From: a virus
Lineage: Duplodnaviria; Heunggongvirae; Uroviricota; Caudoviricetes
DNA: 12,976 nucleotides
Strand: one strand, 5' to 3'
Virus record (IMG/VR): IMGVR_UViG_2778261571_000007
The position numbers and the translations under genes are program-made. Below are positions 419 to 12,403 of this stretch, one piece after another. Each line of letters begins with the position of its first letter. Within the stretch, counting starts at the first letter, position 1. The notes beneath the pieces are model-generated. The model did no database searches and was not told the origin of the DNA. It worked only from the letters and a program-made list of their open reading frames with translations.

Positions 419-574
419 TTACTCCTCAGGTTCGTAAGCTGTGAAGACAGCGACCTCCGTCTGACCGGTTCGGATTCGCACCTCGCAGAGGTCTTTCCTC
501 GTTACCAGTGCCGTCACTATGACGGTTAAACAGATGACAATCAGTGCGACTAACATCGCCTTTTGCTGCTTCAT
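419..574 (-). CDS. hok: Hok/Gef family type I toxin (51 aa, small membrane-damaging peptide)
   Basis: The translation MKQQKAMLVALIVICLTVIVTALVTRKDLCEVRIRTGQTEVAVFTAYEPEE matches the Hok/Gef signature (N-terminal transmembrane helix, conserved RKDLCE...R.G..EVA.F.AYE) and is near-identical in pattern to E. coli HokC/HokD as I recall them. ATG at 572-574 has a GGAG Shine-Dalgarno upstream. Confidence 0.9.
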   Translation of the reverse strand: MKQQKAMLVALIVICLTVIVTALVTRKDLCEVRIRTGQTEVAVFTAYEPEE

Positions 575-631
575 AGCCTGCTTCTCCTTGCCTTCCGGCG
601 CGTAAGAGGCTAACCTACATGTGCAAAGCAT
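419..631 (-). CDS. Mok-like in-frame upstream extension of hok (70 aa), putative translational-coupling ORF
   Basis: The ORF starts at the ATG at 631 and reads in frame into hok. Its N-terminal extension MLCTCRLASYAPEGKEKQA resembles the MokC extension pattern. Whether it is translated is not determinable from sequence. Confidence 0.45.
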   Translation of the reverse strand: MLCTCRLASYAPEGKEKQAMKQQKAMLVALIVICLTVIVTALVTRKDLCEVRIRTGQTEVAVFTAYEPEE

Positions 632-1294
632 GAAATTGGCCTCAGATTAATGTTAAGCGTCTTGCCGGACGCGTAATGTTATCTGGGGCTTTTCTCTATC
701 TGCCTTTGGTGTTCATGCCTGAGGCAGATAGCCTCAAGCACCCGCAGCAATTCTACTTAACTCCCGTCACCTCGCCAATATAAAATCAATCAGAAAGGCG
801 ATCCATAAGAACAACAGCAAGACAATAAATTGCCATTACAGCCGCAATAGCTAGCGCACATTTGAGAACCAGCACGACAACCTCCTGTATTGGACGTACA
901 CCAGTTCTGATAAATATGAGGCTGTCTCATCATTGATTCAATATAACTATTGGGTATAGTTTCTGTGATTTTGTTCTGTAGAAATGGAACACAACAACCA
1001 GTCACCACCAGCACTTCTTTAAATACGCCAAGTCCGACGCAAGCTAACCTTCTAGTCCGCTTTGAGCGAGGAGCGGACCAAACCCGGCCAACTGACTCTT
1101 AAAGGGGCCGCAGGAATTTTTCGTCTGAACTTTCGAAGCTCCTCTCCCTGAAGACAGAAAACTTCTGTGTGCTGTGGGAATATTGAATCTTTGCCTTAGA
1201 TATAAATAATTTTATCCCGCCTGAAGTTTACATTATTTTATTTATCTGTTTTTCTAAATCAGACTGCACTCCTTACTTAAATCAGGAGCCAGTC

Positions 1295-2494
1295 ATGCCA
1301 TTTGTTATTTATGTGTTTACTATCAGTGCCTTTGCGCTCGGACTCGCGGAATTTGTCCCCATTGGGCTGACAGACGTTATGGCTCAGGGGTTGTGTGTGG
1401 GTGTGGAGCAGACCGGGGCAGCGGTTACAACCTATGCACTGGGGGCAACGTTCGCGGCACCCGTACTGTCTGCGCTGACAGCAAGCTGGAGCCGGAAAAA
1501 TGTAATGCTTACAACTGCCGTTGTGTTTACTGCCGGTAGTCTGGCGGCCGCGTTTGCAGCCACATTACCTCAGCTCCTGTTAGCGCGGTTCATTGCTGGT
1601 CTGGGACACGGCCTGTTTCTGGCTGCGGCATCCAGTACCGCAGCTCGTCTTGCTGGACCGGGTAAAGCAGGCAGAGCGGTGGCTGTGGTATTTGGTGGCT
1701 TTACTCTGGCGATGGCAATCGGCGTACCGCTGAGTACATGGTTGGGGGGGGTGGTCTCATGGCGTCCAGTTCTCGGCGCTATTGCCGCTTTTGGCGCGTT
1801 CGGATTCCTTGGACTGTTGTTCGGTATGAAAGATCCCGTACGCAGCGTGCCCGGTGAACATAGTGACTCAGCAATGCAGAATATCGGCATGCTGTTTAAC
1901 CGTAAGTTGCTGGCCGGCGCGCTGGTTACGGTGCTGGCGTATGCAGGCTCGTTTACGGATTACACCTTTATCGCACCTATTCTGACGCAGGTGACAGGGG
2001 TTACCGGAGCAACGGTGAGTCTGTTTATGCTGGTTTACGGTATTACAGCTGCGGTAGGTAATATTCTTGGTGGGAAACTTACCGACAGCATGGGGGTTAA
2101 TCGTGCCAATATACTCATCATTAGCGGCATTGTTGTTGTCGTGCTTGGTATGTGGCTGCTGTCATCCTCACCGGTGAGCATGGGCATTCTGGTTGCGCTG
2201 CTGGGTATGGTGACATTTGCCGCAGTGCCGGCACTGCAGGCCCGTCTGATTGGTGTCGCTGAGCAACATGCTCCTCATGCGCATGGTGTTGCTGCCGGCC
2301 TGAATATTGCGGGCTTCAACTCAGGTATAGCGCTGGGATCAGTACTGGGCAGCATTACTATAAGCCACGCCGGTATCGTGTATACCGGTATCAGCGGTGC
2401 GATTGTTTCTCTGCTCGGCCTGCTGTTGCTGCTTGCACAAATCCGTCGCAGCCACAGTCGTAAATTTCAACAGGTTAAAATCGTAGGCCAGTAA
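1295..2494 (+). CDS. MFS transporter, DHA1-type efflux pump (SotB/YdeA/NepI-like), 399 aa
   Basis: The protein is highly hydrophobic with a 12-helix-like pattern. It has an N-terminal EFVPIGL motif and a loop G(x)GKAGRAVAVVFGGFTLAMAIGVPL that align to the SotB-type sugar/purine efflux family. A GGAG Shine-Dalgarno lies 8 nt upstream. Confidence 0.88.
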   Translation: MPFVIYVFTISAFALGLAEFVPIGLTDVMAQGLCVGVEQTGAAVTTYALGATFAAPVLSALTASWSRKNVMLTTAVVFTAGSLAAAFAATLPQLLLARFIAGLGHGLFLAAASSTAARLAGPGKAGRAVAVVFGGFTLAMAIGVPLSTWLGGVVSWRPVLGAIAAFGAFGFLGLLFGMKDPVRSVPGEHSDSAMQNIGMLFNRKLLAGALVTVLAYAGSFTDYTFIAPILTQVTGVTGATVSLFMLVYGITAAVGNILGGKLTDSMGVNRANILIISGIVVVVLGMWLLSSSPVSMGILVALLGMVTFAAVPALQARLIGVAEQHAPHAHGVAAGLNIAGFNSGIALGSVLGSITISHAGIVYTGISGAIVSLLGLLLLLAQIRRSHSRKFQQVKIVGQ

Positions 2495-2505
2495 AGGGAG
2501 GTTAT

Positions 2506-3198
2506 ATGCTTACCCGTGAAAATATGCTTAATGGCACATTTGTCAGGGTGCATGAAGCGCTGCTCCCGGCGAATATGCTCTGGGACGCTGAAAAAATACG
2601 CGCATCAATGAACTCTACTCTGGAGGAGCGCCCGACGGGTGCTCCTGTCTGGATATTTGCCTACGGGTCATTGATGTGGAATCCCGTGCTGGCGATTGAA
2701 GAAATGCAACGGGCCCGTCTGAAAGGATTGCAGCGCAGTTTCTGCATTCGTTTGATATCCGGACGAGCGACTCCTGATGTCCCCGGCAGGATGTTATCGC
2801 TCGACGAAGGTGGAATTACCGAAGGTATTGCGTTCAGACTGCCGGAATCGACTCTTATTAATGAGCTGGAAATTGTCTGGACGCGCGAGATGATAACCGG
2901 TCTTTACCGTCCGGTCTGGGCAGACGTTTCGCTAGGAAACGGTGAGGAAATTCAGGCGCTGGCTTTCGTATCAGACAGACTGCATCCGCATTATGAACAG
3001 GACAATCTTACAGCGACCGTAGCGTTGAGCATCGCATCTGCCCGTGGAGACATTGGCACGAATGCAGATTATGTATGGAAACTGCAGGCCACTCTGGGTG
3101 CGTTGGGAATACGGGATGATTACGTGAGTGAACTGGCCCTTGCTCTGCATGAGGCTCCCTGTAACGATAAACTTCATCAGCGAGGCGCTTCACTATGA
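2506..3198 (+). CDS. ChaC-like gamma-glutamylcyclotransferase (glutathione-specific GGCT family), 230 aa
   Basis: The translation carries the hallmark YGSLMWNP motif and aligns along its length to E. coli ChaC as I recall it (e.g. PVWIFAYGSLMWNP, FC(I/L)RL, GRMLSLDEGG, WTREMITG). A strong AGGGAGG Shine-Dalgarno lies upstream; the gene starts 12 bp after the MFS stop. Confidence 0.85.
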   Translation: MLTRENMLNGTFVRVHEALLPANMLWDAEKIRASMNSTLEERPTGAPVWIFAYGSLMWNPVLAIEEMQRARLKGLQRSFCIRLISGRATPDVPGRMLSLDEGGITEGIAFRLPESTLINELEIVWTREMITGLYRPVWADVSLGNGEEIQALAFVSDRLHPHYEQDNLTATVALSIASARGDIGTNADYVWKLQATLGALGIRDDYVSELALALHEAPCNDKLHQRGASL

Positions 3199-4076
3199 GC
3201 CATCTGAGCCATCTGCGAACGTTTCTTGAGGCCTATCGCTCTGGCTCCTTTTCAAAGGCGGCAGAACTACTGGGCATCACTCAGCCCGCGGCGTCACAGC
3301 ATATCCAGTCTCTTGAGACTCTGGTTGGTAAGCGTCTGTTTATCAGGCAGGCCAGAGGCGTGACGGCAACCGAAGCTGCGGATGAGCTTGCCCGCTCAGT
3401 TTCACCCTTCATTGATGGTCTGGAAGAAAAGCTGTCCTCTTTCCGGTCAGGCTCTGTACGCGGGGGAACAATTAATCTGGCAGGACCGCCAGATTTTATT
3501 CATTCCCGGCTTGGGACAGTAATGGCTCCACTAATGAAGGAGGGGTATCGCCTACGCTTTCATACCGGCAATAAGCAACGTATTTATTCCCTTTTGCATG
3601 ACGGGAGCGCCGATCTCGCTGTTACCGCATCTATGCCTGATGACCGTCTGTACGGCTATGCACATCTACTGACTGAACGCATGCTCCTTGTTCATGCTCC
3701 CGCCATGTCAGAGATCATCGGATCAGAACCTGGTGCTGAAACGCTTGCCTCATTACCGCTGATTGCTTATGACGAAGAGTTGCCACTGATTAGAGCGCTC
3801 TGGGCCTCCATGTTTCAGAGAGCCCCTGAGATGCAGGCTACATTCACCATTCCGGATTTACGTATTATCCGCGACTTGGTCTGTGACGGCCACGGGTGGA
3901 CAGTGCTGCCGGATTATCACTGTGACAATGACCTGAAAAGTGGTCGCCTGATTTCAGTGACACCTGCAGACCTCGCTCCGACTAATCATCTTTATCTGGT
4001 CTGGAACAAAAGGACGGCTAATAACAGCCGAACCGCCTATGTTCGGGATTACATTCTTAAAACGTTTCCGCGTTGA
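3195..4076 (+). CDS. LysR-family transcriptional regulator, 293 aa
   Basis: The N-terminus has the LysR helix-turn-helix signature (LRTFLEAYRSGSFSKAAELLGITQPAASQHIQSLE), and the length and C-terminal domain are typical of the family. The start codon overlaps the ChaC-like stop (ATGA), implying co-transcription. Confidence 0.9.
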   Translation: MSHLSHLRTFLEAYRSGSFSKAAELLGITQPAASQHIQSLETLVGKRLFIRQARGVTATEAADELARSVSPFIDGLEEKLSSFRSGSVRGGTINLAGPPDFIHSRLGTVMAPLMKEGYRLRFHTGNKQRIYSLLHDGSADLAVTASMPDDRLYGYAHLLTERMLLVHAPAMSEIIGSEPGAETLASLPLIAYDEELPLIRALWASMFQRAPEMQATFTIPDLRIIRDLVCDGHGWTVLPDYHCDNDLKSGRLISVTPADLAPTNHLYLVWNKRTANNSRTAYVRDYILKTFPR

Positions 4077-4120
4077 TGTTTGAAACGGATGATTGGCGAT
4101 GCGTATCATAAGTTACGTAT

Positions 4121-4150
4121 GTCCGCTTCTGGCACAAAGCAGACGCCCAC
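4121..4150. repeat. Copy A of a 30-bp imperfect direct repeat (GTCCGCTTCTGGCACAAAGCAGACGCCCAC)
   Basis: 24 of 30 positions match copy B at 7794-7823 in the same orientation. It lies in the convergent intergenic gap between the LysR gene and the DUF2254-like gene. Confidence 0.6.
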
Positions 4151-4206
4151 TCTCACGCGAATGCTTTGCCCTTGACTTGCCAACAACCGTATCGCTTGCT
4201 CCGCAA

Positions 4207-5484
4207 CTATGGTTTTTTATTAGAATCTTCGCCACTAAATAAATTATAATAAATTGATTTTATTAGATATCTGTCAGAATCTATATGGTCAGCACGAGTA
4301 GCATGCTCTAATGTTTCAAATGCTAGGGTTTGTGCGGCTTCAGCAAAAATTCCAGGCCAACCCTTACTCAGCATCGACAGTCCTTTAAGTACCCTTATCT
4401 GAATTTCCCTCATACTGGCACCATCGCGCGCAACAGGTGAGAAAAAGTCTTCAAGTAGATCGTTATTCTGAAGTGGTGCAACATGTACAGAAGGATATTT
4501 CACTTCTATTTCATCAGATTTATTCTGCGCGTAAGCGGAAAGTATACGTACACCTCTGCCAATGACATCAATGGCGGTTCCAGGATCGTTCACTGCGGGG
4601 GAAAGGGCTCGGCAGGCTATTTCGGCCATGACGCTAAGACAAAATCGGGGGTCCTGAGCAAATGAACGTACATCCGAGACAATAATCGTCTCAAGTAAAT
4701 CGGTGCTGATTGATGACTCCTGGCCCTGACTCAGGTACAAAACTGGCGTGGACGGATGTATGAAACTGCCCGGCTGCGCCACGAGGTATACATGACGGGG
4801 ATCATTGGTCAGCAGCTTGCTGAGTTTCACCATATCAACATATTCAACATAGCCAATCTTTTTCGGATAAACTGCAACCGTTCCTTTCGGCTGTTCATTG
4901 TTCTCAAGCCATGGATATCCGCCGAGACAGGGATTTCTTGCTCTCGCAATAAATGTTTCGATGGCCGCCTGTTCTACTTTTGCCGTTGTCTCACCAACCC
5001 TCCCCAGAGAGGTCAAATGCTGTATCCAGCGAAGCAATGTGATGAGGATTAAGGCAATGACAACCAGTGTTACAATGAATAAAATGACTCTCCCCCTTTC
5101 TCCATAAGCTCCCATATTGAGGGCAATAATCCCTACCAGACTGAAGAGAAAAGAACCGATGAAGGTGGCCAGTACATTTTGTGTGGTGACGTCTTCAACA
5201 ACTAAACGAGTAGCTCTGGGAGTCACATTAGTAGTGGCTGAACCGTAGGCTGTGACCATGATGCTCAGCGAAAATGTGGTCACTGCCAGCATACTCGATG
5301 CCAGTATGTTCAGAATGTTATCGACTGCTTCCGCACCAACCTTCACGGAAACCGACTCAGGTATCATTGATTTAAAAAGAATTGATAAAAGGGCCGTTAT
5401 TATTGCGACAATTGCGAATAACGTTGCCCTGAACCATAGTTTTTTAAATGTCTGCTTCAGCATCCATTTCCAGCGTGAAATCAT
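4207..5484 (-). CDS. Integral membrane protein with a large C-terminal soluble domain, DUF2254-like, about 425 aa
   Basis: A long ORF with N-terminal transmembrane segments and a conserved-looking SPAVNDPGTAID motif. The start is probably the ATG at 5482-5484 (GAGGGA Shine-Dalgarno 9 nt upstream); the ORF track's ATG at 5499 has no Shine-Dalgarno. The family assignment is from memory and moderately certain. Confidence 0.8.
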   Translation of the reverse strand: MISRWKWMLKQTFKKLWFRATLFAIVAIITALLSILFKSMIPESVSVKVGAEAVDNILNILASSMLAVTTFSLSIMVTAYGSATTNVTPRATRLVVEDVTTQNVLATFIGSFLFSLVGIIALNMGAYGERGRVILFIVTLVVIALILITLLRWIQHLTSLGRVGETTAKVEQAAIETFIARARNPCLGGYPWLENNEQPKGTVAVYPKKIGYVEYVDMVKLSKLLTNDPRHVYLVAQPGSFIHPSTPVLYLSQGQESSISTDLLETIIVSDVRSFAQDPRFCLSVMAEIACRALSPAVNDPGTAIDVIGRGVRILSAYAQNKSDEIEVKYPSVHVAPLQNNDLLEDFFSPVARDGASMREIQIRVLKGLSMLSKGWPGIFAEAAQTLAFETLEHATRADHIDSDRYLIKSIYYNLFSGEDSNKKP

Positions 5485-5509
5485 TCTGCATTCCCTCATA
5501 TTGCAGCCG

Positions 5510-5541
5510 GGATAAATAAATGCCGCCTCTGTGGCGGCATG
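5510..5541 (-). terminator. Rho-independent terminator downstream of the BetT-like gene
   Basis: On the minus strand: ATGCCGCC-ACAGA-GGCGGCAT (8-bp GC-rich stem) followed directly by TTTATTTAT, starting 7 nt after the BetT-like stop. Confidence 0.7.
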
Positions 5542-5547
5542 TTGCTG

Positions 5548-7551
5548 TTAACGAACCAGATGCAGGAAGTGCAGGTGTTTTTCGTACTGGTCCAGTATGT
5601 CATTAATCAGCTGTTCCTGATTCCAGCCCATTACATCATAATTTTGGCCGCCCTCTTTGAGATAGACTTCAGCGCGATAATATCGATGTTGTTCACTCTG
5701 CTGCTCATCATTATCCAGCGCAGCGAGCGCGAAGGTCGGTGAGTTATACCCGCGAAGCCTCACTTCATATATATAATTCAGCTCGTTGCCCAAATCGACT
5801 TCAAGGCGAATACGATCCTCGGCGGCGTCACTGATGTGGCTTATCGTTCCCTGCTTGTTAAGTTCCTCCTGAACCAGCGTCATGGCGGGTTGGATAATGT
5901 CGTCCATAAAACGTTTCACAAGAGAGCGCTTCGGCAAATACGCGATATTGCGTAACCTTCTCTGCCAGGGAATTGGGTTACGTGCAGCCGTAGGAGCAAT
6001 AGTCGCCATGCTAAGGCTTTCACGTTTGGTCAAATCCCGACGCAGGGCTTTTAACAGTCCGTATATGGATATTAATAAGATAACTGAGAAGGGCAATGCA
6101 CTCGCTATCGTTACGGTTTGCAACGCACTCAGCCCCCCTGCGATCAGCAGGGCAATAGCAACAACGCCCATGAGCGATGCCCAGAAAATTCGCTGCCAGA
6201 CGGGCGTGTTTGCCACCCCACCTGATGCCAGAGTATCCACAACCATTGCCCCCGAATCAGCAGACGTTACAAAGAAGACGATGACCATCGCCATTGCAAT
6301 GAATGACAGCACGGAAGAGAACGGGAAATGCTCCAGGAAATTAAACAGGGCAAGCGCAACATCCTGCTGAACGGTATTGGCGAGGTCAGTGGCGCCCTGG
6401 TTCATGATGAGATAGATGGCGCTGTTTCCAAACACCGTCATCCACATGAGCGTAAAGCCGGCGGGAACAAACAACACGCCAGTCACGAACTCACGAATTG
6501 TCCTGCCGCGGGAAACGCGTGCAATGAACATACCTACAAACGGCGACCATGAAAGCCACCATCCCCAGTATAATAATGTCCAGCCCCCCAGCCAGTTGCT
6601 CGACTTGGGTTCATACGCGTAAAGGTTGAACGTTTTACTCACCAGTTCCGACAGATAACCACCCGTATTTTCCACAAATGACTTCAGCAGAAGCACAGTG
6701 GGACCCAGGCACAAGACCAGCGCCAGGAGCAACACCGCCAGGCCCAGATTAAGCTCAGACAGGATGCGTATTCCCTTGTCCAGGCCGGACACCACCGAAA
6801 TCGTCGCTAACCCCGTGATGACCACGATCAAAATGACCTGTACCGTTTCATTGATGGGCACGCCGAAAAGATGGTTCAAACCGGCATTCACCTGCAATAC
6901 ACCGTAACCCAGCGATGTTGCAACGCCAAAGACAGTGCCTATCACGGCGAAGATATCAACCGCGTGGCCTATAGGCCCGTAAATGCGATCGCCGATAATG
7001 GGATAGAGCGCAGAACGCAGCGTTAAAGGCAGACCGTGACGGTAACTGAAAAAGGCCAGAATCAGCGCCACGATGGCATAAATTGCCCATGCGTGCAGAC
7101 CCCAGTGGAAGAACGTCAGGCGCATGGCTTCCTTCGCTGCCGCAACGGTCTCTGGAGTGCCGACAGGTGGCGAAAGATAATGCATCACAGGTTCGGCAAC
7201 GCCAAAGAACATCAGGCCGATCCCCATCCCTGCCGAAAAAAGCATCGCGAACCAGGAGTGGTAGCTGAAATCAGGCTGCGCATGGTCTGGGCCCAGCTTT
7301 ATATCACCGTAACGTGAGAGTCCAAGGAACGTGACGCTCAGTAAAATCAGGGCCACAGCAAGTATGTAGAACCAGCTGGCATTCGTGAAGATTTGTTGCT
7401 GAAGTAGTTTAAAATTTTTGTCGGCGACATCCGGGAATACGGCGGCAAAGGCGACAAGAAGGAAAATTAGCAAAGCAGATGTAAAGAATACCGCTTTGTT
7501 AATCTGGCTTGTAGACTTCTTTGGGGTTGTATCATTTTCACTCATAATCAT
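5548..7551 (-). CDS. BCCT-family transporter, BetT-like (choline/betaine/carnitine family), 667 aa
   Basis: The translation aligns throughout with E. coli BetT as I recall it (e.g. KLGP(E/D)..P(E/D)FS..SW.AMLF.AG.GI.LMFF.VAEP, WSPFVG(M/L)F(I/L)ARISRGRTIR(E/Q)FV, VTSADSGA) and includes a long C-terminal cytoplasmic tail. No betI/betB/betA genes are adjacent. Confidence 0.9.
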   Translation of the reverse strand: MIMSENDTTPKKSTSQINKAVFFTSALLIFLLVAFAAVFPDVADKNFKLLQQQIFTNASWFYILAVALILLSVTFLGLSRYGDIKLGPDHAQPDFSYHSWFAMLFSAGMGIGLMFFGVAEPVMHYLSPPVGTPETVAAAKEAMRLTFFHWGLHAWAIYAIVALILAFFSYRHGLPLTLRSALYPIIGDRIYGPIGHAVDIFAVIGTVFGVATSLGYGVLQVNAGLNHLFGVPINETVQVILIVVITGLATISVVSGLDKGIRILSELNLGLAVLLLALVLCLGPTVLLLKSFVENTGGYLSELVSKTFNLYAYEPKSSNWLGGWTLLYWGWWLSWSPFVGMFIARVSRGRTIREFVTGVLFVPAGFTLMWMTVFGNSAIYLIMNQGATDLANTVQQDVALALFNFLEHFPFSSVLSFIAMAMVIVFFVTSADSGAMVVDTLASGGVANTPVWQRIFWASLMGVVAIALLIAGGLSALQTVTIASALPFSVILLISIYGLLKALRRDLTKRESLSMATIAPTAARNPIPWQRRLRNIAYLPKRSLVKRFMDDIIQPAMTLVQEELNKQGTISHISDAAEDRIRLEVDLGNELNYIYEVRLRGYNSPTFALAALDNDEQQSEQHRYYRAEVYLKEGGQNYDVMGWNQEQLINDILDQYEKHLHFLHLVR

Positions 7552-7793: not shown

Positions 7794-7823
7794 GTCTGCT
7801 CTTGGCACAAAGCGGACAACCAC
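7794..7823. repeat. Copy B of the 30-bp imperfect direct repeat (GTCTGCTCTTGGCACAAAGCGGACAACCAC)
   Basis: Matches copy A (4121-4150) at 24 of 30 positions. It lies between the BetT-like start and the end of the phage 140-aa gene. Confidence 0.6.
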
Positions 7824-11741: not shown

Positions 11742-11958
11742 ATCAATAACTCTCAACTGTAAGGGTATTGAAATGTTAACACAAGCTCTCGCTGTAGGGG
11801 TATAGCCGAGACCACCGAAGCCCGGAGGTGGTGAAATAAAACCGGGCACAACACGAAGGCGCATTTCCGATATCCATAAAGAGTCGGTCTTGTCTGTTAA
11901 ATTTAAATGGTGGAGTGCGCCTCCGGTTGTAAATAACGACATTGCTGTGTGTAGTCCT

Positions 11959-12009
11959 GGCGGCATCAGTTTTTTTCTTGAAGTTCGGCTGATGTCCGCC
12001 CTTTTTAAA
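11959..12009 (+). terminator. Strong hairpin (11-bp stem with one bulge, 19-nt loop) followed by CTTTTTAAA; candidate intrinsic terminator or regulatory RNA structure between sieB and kilR
   Basis: GGCGGCATCAG at 11959-11969 pairs with CTGATGTCCGCC at 11989-12000, followed by CTTTTT at 12001-12006. Confidence 0.4.
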
Positions 12010-12181
12010 GTGAATTTTGTGATGCGGTGAATGCGGCTAAGCGCACGTGGCACAGTTAAAAGTCATGTTAGTCCTTATTGGTTTGGGTGGGAAAGCCGAC
12101 TGTAATTGTTAACTGGTTGCAGTCACCTGGAGGCACCAGGCACCGCATCAACAAAGTTCATTTGTAAAAATGGAGATAATT

Positions 12182-12403
12182 ATGATTGCACATCACTTCG
12201 GAACTGATGAAATACCACGTCAGTGTGTGACTCCTGGCGATTATGTTCTTCATGAAGGCCGGACATATATTGCCTCGGCAAACAATATTAAAAAGCGAAA
12301 ACTATATATTCGTAACCTGACCACAAAAACATGCATTACTGACCGCATGATTAAAGTCTTCCTCGGTCGTGATGGTTTACCTGTAAAGGCGGAGTCATGG
12401 TGA
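12182..12403 (+). CDS. kilR: KilR-like cell-division (FtsZ) inhibitor, 73 aa
   Basis: ATG at 12182 has a GGAGA Shine-Dalgarno 5 nt upstream; the ORF-track start at 12170 lies inside that Shine-Dalgarno. The length (73 aa) and position (next to sieB, followed by the small zinc-finger ORF and the RacC-like gene) reproduce the Rac order kilR-ydaE-racC. The sequence [14 protein letters not shown]... is consistent with my recollection of KilR. Confidence 0.7.

Follow-up and report, generated by a model that had tools for sequence, protein, structure and literature searches.

The 12,976-nucleotide stretch of Caudoviricetes DNA analyzed here (IMG/VR virus record IMGVR_UViG_2778261571_000007, hereafter referred to as the window), which matches chromosomal sequence of several Escherichia coli strains at 100% identity and represents part of a Rac-like lambdoid prophage, carries three tightly linked genes encoding a transporter of the major facilitator superfamily (MFS), a ChaC paralog and a LysR-type transcriptional regulator (LTTR). 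Together they form a combination, so far uncharacterised, of ordinary members of known families, namely, an LTTR-controlled exporter cassette that includes ChaC as an accessory gene and resides in a prophage as a moron, and literature searches by gene combination and by RefSeq protein accession found no description of such a three-gene cluster. The reading we favor, to which a probability of roughly 0.55 might be assigned, is that of a self-contained and horizontally mobile cassette, whose LysR protein would control a single promoter upstream of the efflux-type MFS gene. The stable core of the unit appears to be the MFS gene and its cognate LysR gene, with ChaC as a frequent passenger (present in 13 of the 26 loci compared), and the three-gene operon is a discrete cassette within a hotspot of lambdoid prophages that is bounded by repeats and holds cargo and defence genes.

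All three open reading frames (ORFs) are intact and lie on the + strand (Table 1), and the families to which an earlier, sequence-only reading had ascribed their products (a DHA1 efflux pump, a ChaC enzyme and a LysR regulator) are upheld by Pfam and NCBIfam matches. The tight linkage it described, including the ATGA shared by the ChaC stop and the LysR start, is indeed there, except that the gap between the MFS and ChaC genes, given as 12 bp, amounts to 11 nt when counted. Going by this spacing, the three genes are presumably co-transcribed; the GC content of the module is 52–57%, as opposed to 40–45% in the phage flanks.

Table 1. Coordinates of the three-gene module, its putative control and border elements and the neighboring features of the window.
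Feature	Position	Strand	Remarks
MFS gene	1295-2494	+	399 aa; TAA stop 2492-2494
Shine-Dalgarno AGGAG of the MFS gene	1284-1288	+	
MFS-ChaC intercistronic spacer, AGGGAGGTTAT	2495-2505	+	11 nt (direct read); Shine-Dalgarno-like site inside
ChaC paralog gene	2506-3198	+	230 aa; ATG at 2506
LysR gene	3195-4076	+	293 aa; ATGA shared with the ChaC stop, 3195-3198
Dyad ATAAATAATTTTAT	1202-1215	+	ATAAA-N4-TTTAT, T-N10-A; candidate site for LysR recognition, starts 93 nt before the MFS ATG
Second conserved AT-rich block, TTACATTATTTTATTTATC	1228-1246	+	from upstream alignments; TTTACA at 1227-1232
Type-A 24-bp dyad, GTCCGCT-TTGAGCGAGG-AGCGGAC	1055-1078		left border of the three-gene cassette
Type-B 24-bp dyad, GTCCGCT-TCTGGCACAA-AGCAGAC	4121-4144	+	right border of the three-gene cassette; also left border of the next cassette
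Second type-B dyad, GTCTGCT-CTTGGCACAA-AGCGGAC	7794-7817	+	border of cargo and phage backbone, ren side
DUF2254 membrane protein	4207-5499	-	Pfam, NCBIfam
BetT-like BCCT transporter	5548-7551	-	Pfam, NCBIfam
HokD-like ORF	419-631	-	Pfam HOK_GEF, 82 bits; hok/sok type I toxin-antitoxin
sok antisense RNA	569-743	- (region 419-743)	Rfam RF01794, 116 bits
74-aa ORF	790-1014	-	no Pfam, PHROGs or PADLOC match

As the ChaC profile, when scanned against contigs, picked up little besides canonical, chaB-linked ChaC, the neighborhood was traced through orthologs of the MFS protein and their metagenomic relatives, and 26 dereplicated loci possessing an MFS ortholog of at least 60% aa identity and enough flanking DNA were scored by tblastn. 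A LysR gene adjoined the MFS ortholog in 22 of these loci, always as an ortholog of the window regulator (53–96% identity), and ChaC was found directly downstream of MFS in 13, frequencies given which the linkage of the three genes is not a matter of chance. The order MFS, ChaC, LysR was seen in seven loci, MFS followed by ChaC with a classical divergent regulator in five and MFS followed by ChaC only in one, while the ChaC-less loci comprised four with a co-directional LysR downstream of MFS, six with a divergent LysR and three with MFS alone; the regulator is, thus, divergent in 11 of the 22 loci in which it is adjacent. The Enterobacter sp. BIGb0383 chromosome has the order of the window together with its ATGA overlap (identities of 96, 89 and 91% for MFS, ChaC and LysR, respectively), as do a soil metagenome contig and a conjugative IncF plasmid of Klebsiella pneumoniae, and the same order, but with a gap before LysR, is found in Citrobacter sp. 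wls619 and in Klebsiella variicola contigs flanked by insertion sequences (ISs). An orthologous trio with a divergent LysR occurs at loci L100–L103, L116, L117 and L149, and MFS–LysR pairs without ChaC are present in Pseudomonas and on Klebsiella plasmids, two of the latter (L154 and L192) showing 75% nt identity to window positions 1199–2441 and 3184–4071, with only ChaC missing. Within the MFS–LysR unit, ChaC is a clean indel.

Had the arrangement existed in no other genome, the earlier reading would have been refuted, but the trio turns up again in Enterobacter and Citrobacter, on plasmids of Klebsiella and in Proteobacteria from the environment. To call it an unusual operon, as had been done from the sequence alone, was an overstatement, given that the same trio exists with a divergent LysR and that MFS and LysR also pair without ChaC. 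The regulator of the window is, as remarked at the time, co-directional and the last gene rather than divergent, but no special design is implied by this: LysR orthologs take one of two places, upstream in divergent orientation or downstream in co-directional orientation, so that the regulator-last order is a permutation of the ordinary LTTR unit and one of four interchangeable layouts. Divergent transcription is frequent among LTTRs without being what defines them.

The regulator itself is a full-length LysR protein by Pfam (HTH_1, PF00126, 75 bits, residues 4–62; LysR_substrate, PF03466, 92 bits, residues 89–290), which in NCBIfam comes closest to the ArgP/LysG subfamily (88 bits, the cut-off being 197 bits). 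Its putative recognition site upstream of the MFS gene, the ATAAA-N4-TTTAT dyad, is present with zero to two mismatches in 25 of the 25 non-redundant ortholog loci, whatever their layout, in an alignment of the 150 nt upstream of MFS, and starts at -93 in the window and in loci closely related to it, between -92 and -102 in the majority of the remaining co-directional loci (with Citrobacter L004 at -76 and L151 at -67 as outliers) and between -115 and -120 where LysR is divergent as well as in two loci lacking an adjacent LysR (L122 and L094). Such positional conservation is a stronger argument for the dyad than dinucleotide shuffling, where no more than 3% of the shuffles match it equally well in 17 of the 25 loci, figures that are indicative only, the pattern having been derived post hoc from the very sequences tested. 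A search upstream of 1295 for a LysR-type T-N11-A box revealed no strongly symmetric one, the best (1228–1240) having four of six symmetric pairs. The second conserved AT-rich block might possibly be an activation site or a -35 region overlapping a weak predicted promoter; a consensus promoter scan proposed a different one, TTGAAT-16-AATAAT, with a predicted -10 overlapping the dyad. Among close relatives, the upstream region is conserved from ~1181 to the MFS ATG, and the predicted promoter region travels with the cassette.

In classical LTTR exporter units, such as LysG-LysE, ArgP-ArgO and MexT-MexEF-OprN, the regulator adjoins the transporter, and the module resembles these in having LysR next to an exporter presumably under its control, an AT-rich dyad upstream of the transporter promoter and, in many orthologs, the divergent layout. 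It differs from them in that the E. coli regulator is the last cistron, with an overlap suggestive of translational coupling, in the T-N10-A spacing of the dyad and in the enzyme gene placed between pump and regulator.

That enzyme gene encodes a protein matching Pfam ChaC (PF04752) at 118.6 bits against a cut-off of 21 over residues 48–212, for which NCBIfam offered no model and PHROGs no ChaC family. A missing catalytic Glu had been named beforehand as grounds for abandoning the earlier reading, but the residue is retained: E128 (codon 2887–2889), the candidate catalytic acid/base, is invariant among 20 homologs, an alignment that takes in the canonical chaB-linked ChaC from Pantoea, and so are the YGSL motif (Y53-G54-S55-L56, codons 2662–2673), R87, P93, G94, M96, L97, the whole of R127-E128-M129, Y134 and Y189, with R95 of the PGRML motif shared by at least 90% of the sequences. 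A profile search of PDB aligned E128 to Glu83 of human ChaC2, a residue reported to be strictly conserved with the catalytic Glu of the enzymes having the gamma-glutamylcyclotransferase fold, of which YGSL is the other hallmark (PMC7022552). Compared with ChaC of K-12 (b1218), the paralog shows 44% identity over 216 residues and an ungapped active-site region (IVWTREMITGLY against LLWKREMITGCY). Its AlphaFold2 model (pLDDT of 91, pTM of 0.87) retrieved ChaC2 structures 6KY1, 6KY0 and 6K95 as the best PDB matches in Foldseek (TM-scores, normalised to the target, of 0.78–0.85), along with 5HWI and 5HWK of the glutathione-specific yeast GCG1. Judged by its residues and predicted fold, the paralog, thus, seems to be catalytically intact and, owing to its 44% identity to K-12 ChaC, it would likely cleave glutathione to 5-oxoproline and Cys-Gly as E. 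coli ChaC does, the latter being labeled a glutathione-specific gamma-glutamylcyclotransferase in RefSeq and described as such in a 2026 preprint.

Although the YGSL motif, the Glu of the R-E-M triplet, PGRML, the conserved Tyr residues and the fold are shared with both K-12 ChaC and the eukaryotic ChaC2/GCG1, and an N-terminal extension of ~45 residues with K-12 ChaC, the paralog belongs to a separate lineage of a neighbor-joining (NJ) tree (no bootstrap), where a single large clade, apart from canonical chaB-linked ChaC, contains the pump-linked ChaCs along with stand-alone paralogs. Unlike K-12 ChaC, which has chaA-chaB as its partners, it is associated with an MFS pump and a LysR regulator, rides a prophage/plasmid cassette and is found in only ~5.7% of E. 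coli genomes. Paralogs with ~60% identity and no pump (loci L010, L011 and L009) exist in Serratia, next to an FMN reductase and a SnoaL-like protein, and in Erwinia, where the neighborhood comprises xylose-isomerase-like TIM-barrel genes, a luciferase-like monooxygenase, a LysR in convergent orientation, an alpha/beta hydrolase and glutaredoxin 2; the convergent LysR, luciferase-like and TIM-barrel neighbors are common to the Erwinia locus and metagenome contig L009. These pump-less loci hint at a broader tie of this ChaC lineage to redox/xenobiotic gene clusters.

The MFS protein is a 12-transmembrane (12-TM) transporter of the DHA1/YdhP-SotB-Cmx type, matching Pfam MFS_1 (PF07690, 145 bits) in two stretches, the best of which covers residues 9–328, and aligning over its full length to SotB and YdhP. 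Its prior designation as efflux-type agrees with its best named relatives (Cmx/CmrA, SotB, AraJ and NepI), with SotB as the closest structure and with 33% identity to YdhP of K-12; the only solved relatives are the E. coli SotB structures, with the DHA1 antiporter 6KKI at 1.4e-26. It is, nonetheless, not a member of any of these four named DHA1 equivalogs, as it scored below the curated NCBIfam cut-off each time (207 against 400 bits for Cmx/CmrA, 158 against 401 for SotB, 139 against 499 for AraJ and 110 against 584 for NepI), and what can be put forward is a DHA1-type transporter resembling exporters, with efflux predicted from its nearest named relatives. In K-12, no paralog of the gene was recognizable at the nucleotide level by distant-mode blastn against E. 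coli genomes. The pump has the same 12-TM MFS_1 architecture as YdhP, a K-12 protein of no assigned function, SotB/YdeA (97 bits in the SotB alignment), involved in sugar efflux, and Cmx/CmrA, involved in chloramphenicol efflux; unlike these, it forms an ortholog group of its own, which is well conserved (68–73% identity in Pseudomonas, Cupriavidus, Paraburkholderia and Achromobacter) and has a dedicated LysR partner.

Within the prophage, the module is accompanied by hokD/sok and the nin-type genes DUF1367, DUF1364 and DUF1133 on its left and by a Ren-like exclusion gene, a replication initiator, cII-like and cro-like genes, sieB, kilR, racC, recE and, farther off, trkG on its right, and its three genes run opposite to phage early-right transcription. 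The features expected of a prophage moron are present (a location inside a prophage, other cargo at the same place in strain 4114, distinct GC content and a predicted promoter of its own), and the module is prophage-borne cargo not native to E. coli. It was detected in 309 of the 5426 complete E. coli genomes (5.7%), nearly always at >99% identity, and in identical form in 11 IMG/VR prophage contigs, while a megablast search of the INPHARED phage genomes with positions 1295–7551 gave no match, which leaves prophage contigs as the only phage source in which the module was seen. Among the listed PLSDB megablast matches, solely the DUF2254–BetT half of this query was represented, and plasmid copies of the trio surfaced by tblastn.

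The borders of the ~3.1 kb cassette are marked by 24-bp dyads (Table 1) with the consensus GTCYGCT-N10-AGCRGAC, whose loops distinguish type A (nnGAGCGAnn) from type B (nnTGGCACnn) and whose chance expectation in the window, by pattern search, is zero. K. pneumoniae plasmid LR890357 shares exactly positions 1054–4145 with the window (92% identity), its copy of the module having these dyads at both ends, and a module-less Rac-like prophage of strain 4114 is near-identical to it up to 1078 and again from 4119, with other cargo in between, which shows that the slot of the three genes in the Rac-like prophage is a swap site. In strain 4114, this slot (L187, NZ_CP071328.1 769903–787484) contains IS903 and two hypothetical proteins in dyad-bounded cassettes, and a DUF1971 gene lies just beyond the left dyad.

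A pattern scan of IMG/VR for the dyads matched at least 120 contigs, on which a relaxed rescan was then performed. Among the 120 matched contigs listed, 78 have two or more dyads, and most obey an A...cargo...B rule in one orientation, with successive cassettes abutting as B, ~18 nt, A; at least 62 distinct cassettes of 0.5–5.8 kb, 60 of them from the IMG/VR contigs, could be delimited. Many of those listed carry anti-phage cargo (type II CBASS with its cyclase and E1-E2 proteins, a type IV retron reverse transcriptase, PDC-S39 and TIR proteins), and further cargo includes macro, FRG, adenosine-deaminase and radical-SAM proteins, another MFS transporter and many proteins of no assigned function. 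In the Rac, Qin and DLP12 prophages of K-12, the sole A...B pair is a degenerate one in Qin (L314 15982–16996), placed around flxA and part of ydfV. The notion of the dyads acting as stable hairpins or intrinsic terminators found no support (z of about -1 in single-strand folding and no T-run), the variation of their arms is not cleanly compensatory (C-G 81, T-G 41, C-A 17 and T-A 3), and Rfam, in its E-value mode, placed no family at them, matching elsewhere in the window only sok, a DicF-like RNA and STnc100.

How the module might work, if our favored reading of an LTTR-controlled efflux cassette is correct, can be outlined as follows: LysR would bind the ATAAA-N4-TTTAT dyad ~90 nt upstream of the MFS start codon and, upon a small-molecule signal, switch on one transcript comprising MFS, ChaC and LysR, its own synthesis being translationally coupled via the ATGA overlap; ChaC would cleave glutathione, or a close gamma-glutamyl-cysteinyl compound, to 5-oxoproline and Cys-Gly; the pump would export a toxic substrate or else a product of this cleavage; and the module would be transcribed in E. 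coli from its own promoter. A dedicated gamma-glutamyl/thiol processing-and-export module, as initially suggested, is plausible. The most likely physiological theme would be electrophile/xenobiotic stress coupled to glutathione turnover, as short-chain dehydrogenases/reductases (SDRs), Old Yellow Enzymes (OYEs), glutathione S-transferases (GSTs), DJ-1/PfpI proteins, glyoxalases, FMN reductases and luciferase-like monooxygenases recur in the neighborhood: the unit is accompanied by an SDR and a glyoxalase in Citrobacter, an SDR in Klebsiella, a zinc alcohol dehydrogenase in Pseudomonas, an OYE and two GSTs in Cupriavidus, an OYE, an SDR and a luciferase-like monooxygenase in a metagenome-assembled genome and DJ-1/PfpI on Klebsiella plasmids.

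A number of observations speak against this reading and keep our confidence in it barely above even. Every curated NCBIfam cut-off was missed by the pump, which leaves both its substrate and its direction of transport unsettled; half of the ortholog loci lack ChaC, so the pump does not require it; the redox/electrophile theme of the neighbors is anecdotal; the conserved dyad, besides its post hoc derivation, is a T-N10-A element, whereas the textbook LysR box is T-N11-A; and IS3 insertions interrupt the module in some E. coli strains, suggesting weak selection there. To our knowledge, moreover, the ChaC enzymes studied to date are specific for reduced glutathione, with no action on conjugates known to us, and we know of no characterised MFS partner for any ChaC.

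The alternative that survives best, unlikely as we consider it to be, is that the genes are neighbors by transfer history only, with ChaC performing redundant housekeeping glutathione turnover and LysR regulating the pump alone. The clean absence of ChaC from 13 of the 26 loci, the canonical chaC that E. coli already possesses and the pump-less ChaC paralogs of Serratia and Erwinia would all be compatible with this, yet the MFS–ChaC adjacency persists over deep divergence (45–100% identity for ChaC, 61–100% for MFS and a locus GC content of 0.44–0.67) and in both regulator layouts, the intergenic distances are tight, with an overlap suggesting translational coupling, and the pump-linked ChaCs, together with stand-alone paralogs, are set apart from chaB-linked ChaC in the NJ tree. 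Rather improbable in our view is a module for uptake and use, in which the MFS protein would import an external gamma-glutamyl compound (glutathione or a gamma-glutamyl peptide), ChaC would cleave it in the cytoplasm, with Cys-Gly and 5-oxoproline serving as nutrients, and LysR would induce the genes in its presence: sequence alone does not reveal which way the pump transports, none of the curated family cut-offs was reached by it, the gut and animals are where the strains were isolated, and Francisella reportedly uses its ChaC, along with dedicated transporters, to obtain cysteine from host glutathione (PMC7340319), but every relative of the pump that has a name exports its substrate (Cmx/CmrA, SotB, NepI and the DHA1 antiporter 6KKI), about half of the loci conserve the MFS–LysR pair in the absence of ChaC, and the neighboring genes are of the detoxification type instead of peptide or amino-acid catabolic. 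An anti-phage or superinfection-exclusion moron, acting, e.g., by glutathione depletion or an envelope change on infection, is highly improbable in spite of the CBASS, retron, PDC-S39, TIR, macro, FRG and adenosine-deaminase cargo held by the A...B slot elsewhere and of the Ren-like exclusion protein and SieB nearby in the window, for PADLOC models did not support a defence role (no match at E ≤ 0.01 for the three proteins, the two neighboring ones or the small neighboring ORF), the trio occurs under a classical LysR in ordinary non-phage chromosomal contexts of many Proteobacteria, and the slot also bears plain non-defence cargo (BetT/DUF2254, flxA in Qin of K-12 and another MFS).

Apart from the function of the three genes, their repeat-bounded cassette architecture is the most novel lead obtained here, and literature searches on the repeat sequences found no description of the dyads. 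Similarly to attC integron cassettes, Acinetobacter pdif modules and the PeSL "mobile regulatory cassettes" of T4-type phages (PMC2839356), cargo units of 0.5–6 kb are placed between short palindromic repeats, in arrays of N+1 repeats, and are swapped between near-isogenic elements and between prophage and plasmid. Unlike in those systems, neither an integrase nor Xer dependence nor a promoter element could be identified for the dyads, and their sequence resembles neither attC nor dif/pdif; a homologous linker for RecET/Red, a target of a site-specific recombinase and an RNA-level element are the candidates for how they are recognized. It may be tentatively proposed, though we would not bet on it, that the dyads define precise [A-cargo-B] mobile units, which stack in lambdoid prophages and move to plasmids, thereby constituting a new cargo-exchange system.

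The DUF2254–BetT pair to the right of the module is a separate, independent and widespread mobile unit. Without the three genes, it is carried by 1530 PLSDB plasmids, 1265 of which are from Klebsiella, and 1967 of the 5426 E. coli genomes have it; one chromosomal copy, ~94% identical, adjoins acuR and has a degenerate B dyad. The plasmid version begins at window position 4119, and in the window the unit is closed by the second type-B dyad; PHROGs contains near-identical families for both proteins. On the 77.7 kb plasmid pPEC1012 (L090, NZ_CP161339.1), the whole five-gene block with its dyads lies beside IS26/TnAs1 remnants and BREX, with Qin-type ydfV-relBE remnants on its other side, which suggests prophage DNA captured via IS26.

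Two further observations concern the remainder of the window. In many prophage contigs, the conserved backbone sequence adjoining the type-A dyad on its left includes the start-proximal part of the 74-aa ORF. In the interval that separates the sieB homolog from that of kilR (11946–12189, +), sub-threshold Rfam matches to DicF (39 bits, with a gathering cut-off of 48) and STnc100 (35.5 bits, with one of 47) were obtained, and in Rac of K-12, the small RNA KilS is annotated in the corresponding sieB-kilR region.

The module provides E. coli with a second ChaC, mobile and predicted to degrade glutathione, that comes with a pump and a regulator of its own, and, as such, is a tractable entry point both to the poorly understood physiology of bacterial ChaC enzymes and to an orphan, yet widely conserved, MFS ortholog group. 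By comparison of its orthologs, it also illustrates that an LTTR gene can shift from a divergent to an operon-distal position with the upstream putative operator being kept. Its borders, in turn, point to a lambdoid-prophage hotspot in which anti-phage, transport and metabolic cargo are mixed and from which units are exchanged with Klebsiella plasmids. Should the tentative proposal on the dyads prove true, these cassettes would be the phage counterpart of integron cassettes or pdif modules, shuttling defence, metabolic and efflux cargo, and such an exchange mechanism, if real, would help explain the spread of cargo among the enterobacteria of farm animals and humans.

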